Positions 764-29,419 of a stretch of DNA of 29,664 nt are shown here, piece by piece (positions within the stretch are counted from its first letter, which is position 1; each line of letters begins with the position of its first letter). A program made the position numbers and the translations under genes. The notes beneath the pieces are model-generated. The model had not been told where the DNA came from and searched no databases. It saw nothing but the letters and a program-made list of their open reading frames with translations. Origin of the DNA: a virus. Lineage: Duplodnaviria > Heunggongvirae > Uroviricota > Caudoviricetes. The stretch is taken from IMG/VR virus record IMGVR_UViG_3300009034_000003; one strand, 5' to 3'.

Positions 764-783
764 GTGTCGTTATATTATATGAC
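764..783 (-). promoter_or_regulatory. Leftward promoter -10 element (GTCA-TATAAT-ATAACGACAC)
   Basis: TATAAT in the recurrent CATATAATATA context; near-identical to 17229-17249; no consensus -35. Confidence 0.55.
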
Positions 784-1351: not shown

Positions 1352-1531
1352 CTAGCTCACCACCTTTTTGATAATAGTTTGGGTACTGACTCCGGCTCTT
1401 ATTGCAAGGTAGATAGTTACGAAGAGTACTGCCGGACCTGACGCTAGTAGTAGTCCTGGAGCACCTGAGAACAAGATGGCGTTCCCAATTCCCACTAGTG
1501 CTGTTATTCCTAAGCCTTTGGAGAATGACAT
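1352..1531 (-). CDS. Small membrane protein (59 aa, MSFSKGLGITALVGIG...)
   Basis: Manual translation; TAATG overlap with upstream gene; two hydrophobic segments. Confidence 0.7.
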   Translation of the reverse strand: MSFSKGLGITALVGIGNAILFSGAPGLLLASGPAVLFVTIYLAIRAGVSTQTIIKKVVS

Positions 1532-1743
1532 TATTTGTGCTCCTTGTCAAGGTCTTTGAGGCATGAAAGAGCCCAGTCTGTTTCCATAGTAACCGTTCCC
1601 TTGATCGGTGGTCCTATGTCAAGAGTAATGTCTACCTCTATTGTCTCATTTCCTATTCGGATGTCGTGATACATTTGCCCTAGGTCCATTTCTTCATAGC
1701 AGTGATCTAGAAGGCGTATCACATCCTTCTTAGTTATCTTCAT
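1531..1743 (-). CDS. Hypothetical protein
   Basis: 70 aa, GGAGGAGG RBS. Confidence 0.75.
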   Translation of the reverse strand: MKITKKDVIRLLDHCYEEMDLGQMYHDIRIGNETIEVDITLDIGPPIKGTVTMETDWALSCLKDLDKEHK

Positions 1744-12229: not shown

Positions 12230-12622
12230 CTACCTCCTTTTACAATGTGTACCCTCAAGGGTATCTTCTAACTCAAATCCTAGTTCAGCCAGTCTATCTC
12301 TAATCTCATCTGCTATAGCCCAGGCCCTCTTTCTCCTAGCAGCTTGTCTCAGCTCCAGGATTATCTTAACGACTCCTTCCAAGAGTCTTTTGTATTCGTC
12401 CTCATTAAAACCTACATAGTTGTCTACTGTTCCTATCATCTCATTCTCAATCTTCAAAACAACTCGATCAGGGGTTACATTGTAAACTTTCCCATCGATC
12501 CCATCTGTACAGTATCTTGTGCCTCCTTCTGCATCGGTCCAGCGTATAGCGATCTTTCCAGCATATACATCACCTGTCAGTATCTTGAAAGCTATAACGT
12601 CCCCTTCTTTATAAATGTCCAT
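12230..12622 (-). CDS. Beta-barrel-like N-terminus fused to a cysteinyl-tRNA synthetase C-terminal (anticodon-binding)-like domain
   Basis: ELRQAARRKRAWAIADEIRDRLAELGFELEDTLEGT fits the CysRS C-terminal RxxARxxKxWxxADxIRDxLxxxGxxLEDxxxGT pattern; start moved to ATG 12622. Confidence 0.75.
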   Translation of the reverse strand: MDIYKEGDVIAFKILTGDVYAGKIAIRWTDAEGGTRYCTDGIDGKVYNVTPDRVVLKIENEMIGTVDNYVGFNEDEYKRLLEGVVKIILELRQAARRKRAWAIADEIRDRLAELGFELEDTLEGTHCKRR

Positions 12623-12642
12623 TGTTCCTTGCTCCGGAAAAG

Positions 12643-12694
12643 CACTTTGAGTTGGAGCTCGACCAGAAGGGTCAGAGCATCCAATCTCAAAGTG
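12643..12694. other. Long intergenic hairpin (22 bp, three single-nt bulges, 5-nt loop)
   Basis: CACTTTGAG/CTCAAAGTG, TTGGA/TCCAA, GCTC/GAGC, GACC/GGTC. Confidence 0.75.
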
Positions 12695-12739
12695 GAAAAG
12701 AGTAGTCTGCCTAGAGAGGAATTGTATATAACAATACAT

Positions 12740-13405: not shown

Positions 13406-13451
13406 TACTCCTATTGTTAGATCAGGTGTCAGTTCCTTGGTTCCTAGTAGC

Positions 13452-13510
13452 TAGCTCCTAAGTTCTAGCTCTTAAAGTTCTAGCTGCTAAAGTTCTAGCT
13501 CCTAAAGTTC
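13452..13510. repeat. Tandem repeat, 4 x ~15 bp TAGCTSYTAAAGTTC
   Basis: Units start at 13452 (14 bp), 13466, 13481, 13496; intergenic. Confidence 0.85.
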
Positions 13511-13615
13511 TGGTCCTAGAAGTGCTGAAAACCCTGCCTTTCTTTTCTAGACTCGCGACGGGCTTCAAAAGGTGGAGCTGTCCAGGTCTTAGTATCTAGG
13601 CTCAGGCCCTAGCCG

Positions 13616-15852: not shown

Positions 15853-15886
15853 TTGAGCTGTTATTTTGATTTTTCCATATAATATA
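15853..15886 (+). promoter_or_regulatory. Rightward promoter antisense to the gene block
   Basis: CA-TATAAT-ATA at 15876-15886 preceded by TTTTGATTTTT as in the array-linked promoters; TTGAGC 19 bp upstream. Confidence 0.5.
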
Positions 15887-24839: not shown

Positions 24840-25122
24840 GTACTATATGTACGGTTACATATATATAGATACTAAGTAACAGGGGTCCAATATATAGGGG
24901 GCCAGGCCCTATATATAGGGTACGGGGGTTATATATATAAGGTTAATATACAAGGGGGCCCATATATATAGGGGCCGGGGGTGTATATATATAGGGCCAA
25001 TATACAGGGGGCCCCGGGGGTCTATATATAGGGGTTATATAGGCTATATATATAGGGTACGACCCCCCGGGGGTATACCTTATCTGCAGCCCCCCTATCC
25101 CCCCGGGGTCACGTGCCGGGGC
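24840..25122. repeat. TA-tract / G-run degenerate repeat region at the strand switch (candidate origin or terminus)
   Basis: About 7 copies of TATATAGG(G); AATATAYARGGGGCC at 24889, 24945, 24999; perfect palindrome CCCTATATATAGGG 24907-24920. Confidence 0.8.
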
Positions 25123-25194
25123 ATAACGCAAGCATCCGGTAGCGATACCAGGGTTAAAGGGGAACTTGTTACTTTTAACATATATTTAGCTACT

Positions 25195-25270
25195 CCAGCA
25201 TTCTAGATGTCCATATACCAGCATTCTAGCTCTCCTAGCTTCCCAGCCATCAAGTATCCCAGCATTCTAG
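25195..25270. repeat. Three dispersed CCAGCATTCTAG direct repeats
   Basis: Copies at 25195, 25218, 25259. Confidence 0.75.
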
Positions 25271-25306
25271 CTACCATACTCTAGCCCACCCAAAAACCCG
25301 GCCGTC

Positions 25307-25358
25307 CCTATACCCTTTTATTTCAAAAGCCTATTTTTTAAGATGTTCATATAATATT
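25307..25358 (+). promoter_or_regulatory. Degenerate promoter cassette copy driving the mini-array
   Basis: CCTATACCC...TTCA-TATAAT (25350-25355); no consensus -35. Confidence 0.5.
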
Positions 25359-25363
25359 AGTGA

Positions 25364-25487
25364 GAGTTATCCAAATGCCTACTGTGAACCAAGACAAAAG
25401 TGTACAGTCAAAAGCCACTTGAGAACCATACACGAGATGCACAAAAGCCATATAATGAACGTGAACCAGGCTGGTACTGCGTAGTTA
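25364..25487 (+). repeat. TIGR-like mini-array (3 units)
   Basis: Same two repeats and 9-nt spacers as 28135-29069; 25371-25430 is 59/60 identical to 28216-28275. Confidence 0.8.
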
Positions 25488-25492
25488 ACCTA

Positions 25493-25543
25493 TATACCCT
25501 CTTTTTGATTTTTGCAAAATGTTCCTTGCGCTCATATAATATA
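25493..25543 (+). promoter_or_regulatory. Sigma70-type promoter
   Basis: TTGCAA 25512-25517, 17-bp spacer, TATAAT 25535-25540. Confidence 0.85.
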
Positions 25544-25583: not shown

Positions 25584-26075
25584 ATGACCGAAGCTGAAGT
25601 TGGCCTGTTCTTCCTACTCCTCTTTGGAGCTTGTGGCGTGGCAGGTATAGTATATGGGGTAGTTATGTGGAGACGTCATAGGTCCAAGAAAAAGAAGTTC
25701 AGGGTTCAGAACCCAGTAAGAGTACCAACAGATACGGTACTAGACATCAAGAAATACCTGACAGAGATAAAAGGTGAGGTGTGTGAACCTTGTTTTTATG
25801 TAGAAGCCAACTTGCGCGTTAGAGGCTATGCCGAGATGGATTGGGGTTCTGGTATGTGGGACATGTCTGCTTCTCTCCATATCTTTATTGAAGAAAAGGA
25901 CGCAGATGATTCCTGGCACTGCATCTACCATTATGAAGGAGTAGATGCCCCTATAGCTTCTGGTGTCTCTTCGGGGGAAGGTGCCACTGGTGATAGTACA
26001 AAGCTCCACAAGATACAAGAAGCGTGTGCATGGCTAAAACAGTACGCTAGTGACAAGGCACTAGTATCTGGTTAG
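25584..26075 (+). CDS. Membrane-anchored hypothetical protein
   Basis: N-terminal TM followed by basic residues; AAGGAGG RBS. Confidence 0.8.
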   Translation: MTEAEVGLFFLLLFGACGVAGIVYGVVMWRRHRSKKKKFRVQNPVRVPTDTVLDIKKYLTEIKGEVCEPCFYVEANLRVRGYAEMDWGSGMWDMSASLHIFIEEKDADDSWHCIYHYEGVDAPIASGVSSGEGATGDSTKLHKIQEACAWLKQYASDKALVSG

Positions 26076-26992: not shown

Positions 26993-27254
26993 AAGGAGAG
27001 GAACAATAGCGTATAGAGACCGGAAAGAGCTTAAAAAGATGTATGGCGAGCCAGATTGCCCTGCGAGTGCTTTGCACTGGATAGTTGCTATAATCCACGA
27101 TTGGCTTATAAATGATACAATTGAAGCTATACGCGTGATCCTTACAGGAACCCAGGGTCTTATCGGTAGTAACCGAAGTCCTCTGGAGGGTAAGATCAAG
27201 GAAGTGCTAGAGTATCTGGACCTAAGAGGAAAAGGAGACAATGGACATACCTGA
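26979..27254 (+). CDS. Hypothetical protein (start uncertain)
   Basis: 91 aa; overlaps the HNH gene start. Confidence 0.6.
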   Translation: MNITRRRGTIAYRDRKELKKMYGEPDCPASALHWIVAIIHDWLINDTIEAIRVILTGTQGLIGSNRSPLEGKIKEVLEYLDLRGKGDNGHT

Positions 27255-27795
27255 CAATATACAATACCTTTGGTGGATGCTAGAGGAACACGGAGTCACA
27301 AGTAAACAAGTCAAAGTAAGATTGCTGCAGGAACTCAAGCGCTATGACCCAAGCAAACGACCTTATAAGATGAAGTATGATCGTTACTTGGAATCAGGAC
27401 ACTGGCTAAAGTTCAGGATATACATGCTACGCGAGTATCCTGAGTGTCAGTTTTGTGACTGCGAGGAAACTCTCCTTGTCCATCACACTAACTACGATCA
27501 TCTGGGCGAAGAAGACGAATACCGCGATGTGACTGTGCTGTGTAGCGAGTGTCACGAGGCATTCCATACTTTTGCGAACCTCTTTGTGGATAGGAAATAT
27601 AGGGAAAAGTTTCTATATCCACGAGCTGGTTCTTTTCTTGATGGGAATAACAGGTTCAAGTTCGGAAAGCACAAAGGCGAAAGCTTAAGCTATGTGAGAA
27701 GTGTCGATCCCGGCTATGTTGACTGGGTGCACGGTGAGTCAAAATACGAGAGTGATAGACACGCGATCGAAGAACCAGATTATGATGACTACTAG
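27241..27795 (+). CDS. HNH endonuclease with C-terminal FGKHKG...DPGY.xW module
   Basis: CQFC...LLVHH.NY...VTVLCSECHEAFH; FKFGKHKGESL...VDPGYVDW. Confidence 0.85.
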   Translation: MDIPDNIQYLWWMLEEHGVTSKQVKVRLLQELKRYDPSKRPYKMKYDRYLESGHWLKFRIYMLREYPECQFCDCEETLLVHHTNYDHLGEEDEYRDVTVLCSECHEAFHTFANLFVDRKYREKFLYPRAGSFLDGNNRFKFGKHKGESLSYVRSVDPGYVDWVHGESKYESDRHAIEEPDYDDY

Positions 27796-27841: not shown

Positions 27842-28138
27842 ATGGAACGCACAGAAGAATGTTCAGAAGTGACATACCAGGCTTTTTGTTTGTTGCAACG
27901 TGTAGCAGAACTCTTGCACATGGAGGAACTGTCCTTGTCTGTAGCAAGCTATATGCTTGGCATTTCGCTGATGGACGCTAAGGGGCTCAGTCTTAATTGG
28001 CGTCTTCTTCCCTGTACTGCACACCCACTTGTAGCACAGTACTGTGGCGAAGATGTGAAGACGTTACTGACGTGGGACGATTGCGATGCATGTGCGAACA
28101 GAGAGGACTGCCCCGCTAGAATAGGAGAACCCCAATAG
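27842..28138 (+). CDS. Cys-rich hypothetical protein directly upstream of the array (98 aa)
   Basis: ATG 27842 with AAAGGAG RBS; C-terminal CxxCxxxxxC; its stop codon abuts the array start. Confidence 0.7.
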   Translation: MERTEECSEVTYQAFCLLQRVAELLHMEELSLSVASYMLGISLMDAKGLSLNWRLLPCTAHPLVAQYCGEDVKTLLTWDDCDACANREDCPARIGEPQ

Positions 28139-29069
28139 AAACCAAAGTTCTCCTGAGAACCAAGCAATATGTGTACAGCCAATCATGATATGAGAACCGT
28201 AATGGTTTTGCATAGCCAAATGTCTACTGTGAACCAAGACAAAAGTGTACAGTCAAAAGCCACTTGAGAACCATAGCTGTAATGCATAGCCAACATATGA
28301 CTGGGAACCAAGACAATAGTGCTTAGCCAAGAATGAGTTGAGAACCGTGCTTGAAATGCACAGCCGATATAAGATAGGGAACCAGGTGTATATTGCGTAG
28401 TCAGAGAACCAATGGGAACTAAACCTTACATGCGTAGCCAAACGGCCATTGAGAACTAGAGGAGCTTTGTGTAGCCAACGTTGAATTGAGAACTAGGTAG
28501 CATATGCGTAGCCATTGCCGCAATGATAACCAAGCAAGAGATGCGCAGCCGTCGTCTACATGAGAACCTAGTCAACCTTGCATCAGTCAAAGCTCTCTTG
28601 GGAACCAAACCTTATATGTGTAGCCGTTGCTCATATGTGAATCAGGAGTTGTTTGCGTAGCCAAAGCTCACCTGAGAACCAGGAGTTGTTTGCATAGCCA
28701 TCATACATTTGTGAGCCGCATCGCAGTTGCATAGCCATATTCAATGTGCGAACCATACTGTTTCTGTGTAGCCATAGACGGAATGAGAACCGTGCCTAGG
28801 TTGCGTAGCCACGTGGACACTGGGAACCAGGTAGATAGTGCGTAGCCATCATCAACACGTGAACCCTACACTAATTGCACAACCAATCTCTAGATGGGAA
28901 CCTAGCCGGCTTTGTATAGCCAGACGTTTGATGAGAACCGTGAACTATCTGATAGCCATCTTACACATAGGAACCATGCCGGCATTGCATAGCCATCTAT
29001 AATTTGTGAACCATACGAGAATTGCGTAGCCGTGATACTCATGAGAACCTTTCTTTCCTTGCCTATACC
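28135..29069 (+). repeat. TIGR-like dual-repeat, dual-spacer array (25 units, 37-bp period)
   Basis: TGDGAACCR boxes at 28154, 28191, 28228 ... 29042, spacing 37 (one 38, one 36), alternating with TGCRTAGCCR; variable 9-nt spacers. Confidence 0.88.
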
Positions 29070-29114
29070 CTCTTTTTGATTTTTGCAAAACGTTCCTTTT
29101 GCTCATATAATATA
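29064..29114 (+). promoter_or_regulatory. Sigma70-type promoter
   Basis: TTGCAA 29083-29088, 17 bp, TATAAT 29106-29111; 48/51 identical to 25493-25543. Confidence 0.85.
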
Positions 29115-29134: not shown

Positions 29135-29419
29135 ATGAACTCTGAAGACATTCTAAACATTAGACTAGAACGTAGTTATGAGACCGATGCAATTACTATC
29201 AAAGAGTATTTTATAAAATTGCTATCGACACTATGGCGAGAAGCTGACCGCTTTTCTGGGAAGAGGCCGTTCGGGAGCTCGAACTGGCAGTACTGTGTTT
29301 ATAAGGCTCTGATTAAGCACGGCGTTGTTCCTGGTGAGCTCGATGAAGAGGATGACATAGTAGAAGTTGATACTAAACAGGCCGACGAAATTATACAACA
29401 AGCAATCAGATCACTATAA
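29135..29419 (+). CDS. Conserved hypothetical phage protein
   Basis: TIKEYF..LL.TLW.E...FSGKRPFGSSNW motif recalled from phage hypotheticals; GAAGGAG RBS. Confidence 0.75.
   Translation: MNSEDILNIRLERSYETDAITIKEYFIKLLSTLWREADRFSGKRPFGSSNWQYCVYKALIKHGVVPGELDEEDDIVEVDTKQADEIIQQAIRSL

Follow-up and report, generated by a model that had tools for sequence, protein, structure and literature searches.

Gene context and array anatomy

The window, i.e., the whole 29,664-nt stretch of DNA analyzed here, is part of a 123,331-bp JGI/IMG contig from a large uncultured phage. Short genes without known function point to the left up to ~24,800 and to the right beginning at 25,584; a TA/G-run tract lies where the direction changes. 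The rightward side carries a mini-array of three units and, separated from it by ~2.7 to 2.8 kb and six ORFs, a main array. The mini-array is real, and both arrays fit the published sequence definition of dual-repeat TIGR arrays. The TIGR system itself is already known: it binds DNA under the guidance of RNA and was described in 2025 (Faure et al. 2025, PMC12045711). In its dual-repeat form, each repeat begins with UG and ends with CCA, spacers are 9 nt long, the 4-nt loop is A-rich, and the edge has one additional base pair (PMC12045711). The array features are as follows:

25368-25373, plus strand: edge repeat truncated at its 5' end and closed by box C (CCA, 25371-25373), the left end of the copied tract
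25374-25410, plus strand: mini-array unit m1, a copy of M3 from the main array, carrying a single change at position 5 of spacer A (25378) and lacking the extra edge base pair (U-U)
25411-25450, plus strand: mini-array unit m2, spacer A and loop exactly those of M4, spacer B different (chimeric guide)
25438-25450, plus strand: edge repeat between m2 and m3, 13 nt, with three added A within a short run
25451-25487, plus strand: mini-array unit m3, without a close match in the window, weakly like M7, final box C degraded
28142-29063, plus strand: main dual-repeat TIGR array, 25 units (M1 to M25, 28145-29063), period of 37 nt

Each unit is ordered spacer A, loop repeat, spacer B, edge repeat, and the three mini-array units (25374-25487) parse exactly as a first-pass annotation of this DNA had given them. 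All six of their spacers are 9 nt long, the loop repeats are 9 nt, and the edge repeats are 10 nt except for the one of 13 nt; the 3-nt insertion that had been reported there is thus present, and it is exceptional, since the 41 other edges span 9 to 11 nt. The mini-array therefore has the two alternating 8- to 12-nt repeats and 9-nt spacers of a dual-repeat TIGR array, and box D (UG) opens and box C (CCA) closes both repeats. Box by box, loop box C and the downstream box D are found in 3/3 units, loop box D in 2/3 (the third reads CG), and the upstream box C in 2/3, the exception, TCA, being found in the main array too. TIGRFinder would discard three-unit arrays with imperfect boxes.

Edge box D is present in 28/28 units of the window, and the loop is A-rich and 4 nt long. 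The extra edge base pair is found in 26 of the 28 window units and in 15 of the 16 units of an orthologous array from a relative (L001; Logan contig, SRR29324602), and A-U substitutes for G-C/G-U three times (M1, M21, and R1); the A-rich loop repeat and the covarying extra edge pair are thus features of the mini-array and main array alike. Units m2 and m3 retain a G-C edge pair and are the likelier working guides, as m1 is among the exceptions lacking it. The fold of the mini-array RNA is not unusual (z +1.6). CRISPR mini-arrays of phages have one 25- to 36-nt repeat and spacers of like size, whereas this array has two short repeats and 9-nt spacers, and an Rfam search gave no match.

The likeness to described dual-repeat TIGR arrays (PMC12045711; bioRxiv 10.64898/2026.09.09.750476) extends from the alternating UG...CCA edge and loop repeats, 9-nt spacers, and A-rich 4-nt loop to the extra edge base pair, the truncated first edge, and the phage origin. 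The mini-array departs from this type in its unit of 37 nt, which has a 10-nt edge (36 nt is typical), and in having only three units. Furthermore, it has no nearby tas gene, gives way downstream to a promoter cassette carrying T-tracts, with no hairpin terminator called there, and has a 1.5-unit tract in common with a second array. A guide repertoire divided over separately placed arrays is also seen at the PlTasA locus, where three sub-arrays lie ~450 nt apart (PMC12045711). However, stem-loop units stand beside tas there, whereas dual-repeat units stand 2.7 kb and six ORFs apart here, and sequence exchange between the arrays is traceable here. Expression and processing of split sub-arrays and of one- to three-unit arrays are known (PMC12045711).

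No Nop-like hit was found among the 30 window ORFs scanned (Pfam may miss Tas proteins), and no tas gene adjoins the mini-array, none lying within 25 kb to the left or 4 kb to the right. The HNH protein at 27241-27795 was considered as TasH and rejected; it has an HNH domain and an ExoX-like C terminus and gave no Nop hit. The 169-aa phage protein at 12230-12739 just reaches the Pfam cutoff for CysS_C, the anticodon-binding domain of cysteinyl-tRNA ligase. A Cys-rich 98-aa ORF (27842-28138) leading into the main array is kept at the equivalent place in L001 (551-847), where other genes replace the HNH gene upstream of it.

Searches for further relatives gave little. Exact and degenerate array patterns, verified on the window, had no match in viral, metagenome, and genome collections; no similar phage record was found, protein-based searches for the locus found no relatives, and no homologues were found for the ORFs at 25584, 26100, and 1531. 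Two relatives, L002 and L003, end short of the mini-array. The TA/G-run tract at the strand switch (24840-25120) is kept in both (L002, 165-450; L003, 10-200) with varying run lengths; contigs of several relatives stop in or beside it, and it is a candidate origin or genome-end signal.

Promoter cassettes around the arrays

A promoter cassette is repeated at 25309, 25493, and 29064, and the mini-array lies between the first two copies:

25309-25357, plus strand: promoter-like cassette P1, a degenerate family member with a perfect -10 (25350-25355) and no -35 at 16 to 18 nt
25493-25542, plus strand: promoter cassette P2, TTGCAA-17-TATAAT with T-tracts, 47/50 identical to P3, driving the ORF at 25584
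29064-29113, plus strand: promoter cassette P3, directly past the main array, TTGCAA-17-TATAAT, 49/50 identical in L001

The 10-mer core around the 25350 hexamer occurs five times in the window (0.08 expected). Outside the cassettes, exact copies lie at 15876-15885 (plus strand) and 772-781 (minus strand), the former opposing the surrounding leftward genes. CTAG-rich direct repeats of ~15 nt are found at 25190-25290, just upstream of P1, and a similar 15-nt tandem repeat is found at 13451-13523.

The TATAAT that had been noted at 25350 is indeed there, but the array does not start ~10 nt after it as described: the first repeat remnant (box C) is at 25371, 15 nt past the hexamer, and 25364 is no repeat boundary. 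P1 is the first rightward promoter candidate beyond the strand switch. At 16 to 18 nt, however, the best -35 matches 2/6 positions, and the promoter scan does not call the 25350 site, calling the cassettes at 25512 and 29083 instead. Because P1 lacks a -35 at this spacing, the independent transcription, or early expression, of the mini-array that had been proposed is unproven. No hairpin terminator was called past the mini-array.

Repeated early-promoter cassettes also flank small modules in a variable region in T4-like phages, as PeSL cassettes (Arbiol et al. 2010, PMC2839356). Unlike in those, no terminator hairpin was called in the cassette here, and the flanked module is a guide array. By analogy with PeSL, the cassettes could mediate shuffling, and recombination may have occurred between them at this locus.

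Probable exchange of units between the arrays

The 59/60 identity that had been reported between the two arrays was reproduced. Positions 25371-25430 of the mini-array differ at a single base (25378, C versus T at 28223) from the likely donor tract:

28216-28275, plus strand: box C, M3, and the spacer A, loop, and 2 further nucleotides of M4 in the main array

Blocks with ≤1 mismatch reach at most 21 nt within the main array; the corresponding maxima are 17 nt for the mini-array against the L001 array and 36 nt for the orthologous main arrays compared with each other. A 60-nt match with one mismatch is far above the 21-nt background and is therefore not explained by the repeats.

The copied tract comprises 1.5 units, from the box C before M3 to 2 nt past box C of the M4 loop. 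Identity does stop 2 nt into spacer B, as the first-pass annotation had it, but the conclusion that the break lies inside the spacer does not follow: the two bases past the loop box C, TA, start nine of 44 B spacers, so that the join can be placed only within an 11-nt stretch consisting mostly of loop repeat. An exchange bounded by repeats is the simpler reading. The earlier proposal of a recent recombination or gene conversion between the arrays with a join at a repeat thus gains support, with box C on both sides of the tract and a divergence of 1/60, compared to 9.5% in orthologous units (P = 0.02). The direction was probably from the main array to the mini-array, the donor being judged from units within the window, and recombination at the repeats is the probable copying route.

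Polarity is provided by L001, in which an orthologous main array of 16 units (851-1440) lies between the same two genes. It has in common with the window M1, M4, M5, M17, M15, M21, M23, M22, and M25 and, partly, M18 and M24 (~9 to 11 of the 16 units). The first and last units are fixed, some middle units are reordered, and M2 and M3 are missing; a comparison with related genomes, as had been suggested, therefore shows units gained, lost, and reordered in the main array. In L001, unit R2 joins spacer A4 with spacer B4, as the main array of the window does, which makes the main-array pairing ancestral and m2 a derived chimera. Orthologous units of the window and L001 differ at 9.5% of positions, and the lower divergence of the copied tract (1/60, as above) suggests that the exchange is probably younger than the separation of the two phages.

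Between orthologous spacers, 13/162 nt differ, versus 55/193 third codon positions in the two flanking genes, and spacer positions 8 and 9 hold seven of the 13 changes (P = 0.013). Spacer conservation of this kind is consistent with purifying selection on the guides, the contrast being inflated by the choice of orthologues by similarity.

Copying of half-units occurs within the main array too, where neighboring units share one spacer B: M14 and M15 (28643-28663 and 28680-28700) have identical B spacers and related but not identical A spacers and are a tandem half-unit duplication. All 12 of the spacer pairs within ≤2 mismatches in the window are A-A or B-B (four expected in all). Spacer A of M8 (28404-28412) duplicates the loop repeat (GAGAACCA plus one base), i.e., a repeat fragment turned into a spacer.

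We regard the mini-array as probably a small satellite TIGR guide array that recombination between repeats has built and keeps current in a large phage. Through phage recombination (strand annealing at 9- to 11-nt repeats), the M3-M4A tract would have been copied from the main array into an M3-M7 copy that was older, had diverged, and lay between two promoter cassettes. Spacer A4 would thereby have been joined to a different spacer B, so that a new 18-bp address would arise although no DNA was newly acquired. Judging from the literature, the transcript would be cut in the edge repeats to give ~37-nt guides; these would presumably be loaded in trans on a Tas protein encoded elsewhere and, as in described systems, direct binding and a transcription block at sites consisting of spacer A, a gap, and the reverse complement of spacer B. 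Such sites are probably in related phages and, for M3, possibly in the early region of the phage itself.

Alternatively, the mini-array may be a decaying remnant left over from the duplication of an array-plus-promoter cassette, in the manner of the PeSL cassettes of T4-like phages, and now silent or unprocessed, the 60-nt tract being a neutral recent conversion. Such an origin, which we consider unlikely but of some weight, would suit the position of the mini-array between two direct cassette copies and the fact that both arrays end on this cassette, as well as the missing -35 of P1, the missing extra edge pair of m1, the edge with 3 extra bases in an A-run, and the degraded last box C. Decay is nevertheless difficult to reconcile with 9-nt spacers, both loop boxes, and the downstream box D being kept in 3/3 units and the G-C edge pair in m2 and m3; moreover, P1 retains the exact 10-mer core of its family, and a truncated first edge is normal in TIGR arrays (PMC12045711).

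The remainder of the mini-array bears on its age. Outside the copied tract, 57 nt of mini-array and the P1/P2 flanks occur once in the window. The 62 nt that make up the rest of the array align best, at a collinear position, with M6B-M7 (two null models equal the score in 1.7% and 7% of cases, respectively), and the last edge variant is found, among 41 edges, otherwise only after M7. Derivation from a diverged M6B-M7-like region is therefore suggested; descent as a relic of the 3' end of the main array (M24-M25) was also considered and received no support from alignment. The same order (M3, M4A, M6B-M7-like) and the same edge variant are what would be expected of a newborn daughter array, formed by one recent duplication of main-array units and a subsequent repeat-mediated deletion from the M4 loop to the M6 loop, with no older array overwritten. 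A single event would, however, diverge evenly, whereas the first 60 nt differ at one base and the remaining 62 nt are only loosely M6B-M7-like (P of 0.02 to 0.07). In addition, P2 has three private changes relative to P3 and its orthologue, which alone is not significant. A newborn array is thus improbable in our judgment, and the combination of collinear likeness and uneven divergence leans toward an older M3-M7 copy, the front of which was recently overwritten by conversion.

An assembly artifact, or a chimera of co-occurring strains, is very improbable even though the contig is metagenomic and the mini-array follows low-complexity TA/G-run DNA in which contigs of relatives end, since the 60-nt repeat carries a mismatch, has unique flanks, and is shorter than a read, the 57 further nucleotides and the P1/P2 flanks are unique in the window, and L002 crosses the TA/G-run region in unchanged order to ~130 nt before the mini-array.

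Candidate targets and significance

In tandem targeting, the two spacers of a guide pair with opposite strands of neighboring DNA. From the 8-nt 3' overhang reported for TasR, for which gaps of 1 to 2 bp are tolerated (PMC12045711), we derive targets in which spacer A precedes the reverse complement of spacer B. With the arrays masked, one site of this form stands out in the window:

1627-1646, plus strand: candidate self-target, spacer A, 2-bp gap, and reverse complement of spacer B, within a 70-aa orphan ORF (1531-1743, minus strand)

This site is matched at 17/18 positions by M3, at 16/18 by m1, and at 18/18 by spacer A of M3 combined with spacer B of M5. Among 2,000 spacer shuffles, 16 (0.8%) gave a cognate match this good at gaps of 0 to 3, and 10 gave a perfect match of any spacer A with any spacer B; other strand arrangements in the search gave nothing comparable. 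The match is a single event found after looking, and it may about equally well be biologically real or not. By the C-5 rule, the M3 mismatch (B7) would fall at the tolerated "nickase" position and the additional change in m1 (A5) in the seed, although PMC12045711 words the cut site in two ways. The single change in m1 therefore probably adds a seed mismatch to the self-target.

Other candidate sites were rejected. The IMG/VR targets predicted for M3/m1 and M5 (17 hits) were at about chance level, and none was related to the window by tblastn. A noncognate combination of m1 spacer A with m3 spacer B at minus 19110 (1 mismatch, gap of 3) was at chance level, as was an M7 site at 24935 (3 mismatches) in low-complexity sequence. 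M15 matches the gene directly past the array at 16/18 positions with a 3-bp gap (29322-29341, minus start 29341; L001, 1697-1717); both mismatches are at third codon positions and the same site is found in L001, but the match is not significant alone, 16% of shuffles reaching two mismatches, and it was also treated as chance level. Six any-pair sites with ≤2 mismatches were found, compared to an estimated ~6 expected.

The origin of M3 touches on the same site. M3 spacer B is 8/9 identical to that of M5, its loop, spacer B, and edge match the L001 orthologue of M5 at 23/25 positions, and it therefore looks like an M5 duplicate in which spacer A was replaced. M5 is retained at 18/18 positions in L001, which lacks M3. 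Either M3 and M5 are both aimed at alleles of the orphan gene at 1531-1743 in sister phages, or M3 spacer A was templated beside the spacer B match, or the match at 1627-1646 is due to chance. The second of these would amount to half-guide-primed acquisition, in which M3 was duplicated from M5 (whose spacer B matches 1638-1646 perfectly) and a new spacer A was templated 2 bp away (1627-1635, 9/9), later changes at B7 and, in an early-expressed mini copy, at seed position A5 detuning the self-match. We advance this scheme as speculative and rather unlikely; if true, the copied guide M3 records how TIGR arrays acquire new addresses.

How spacers are gained or changed in TIGR arrays and what they target have both been stated to be unknown (PMC12045711; bioRxiv 10.64898/2026.09.09.750476), and a TasA aimed inside a gene represses its transcription (Xu et al. 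bioRxiv 10.64898/2026.09.09.750476). The locus described here is a natural, repeat-bounded exchange of 1.5 units that yields a chimeric guide and is polarized by a relative, and it bears on how such arrays change. One candidate natural target, its halves 2 bp apart, is also available for testing with three natural guide variants. In addition, short satellite arrays can lie far from tas genes, where annotation anchored on tas would miss them.
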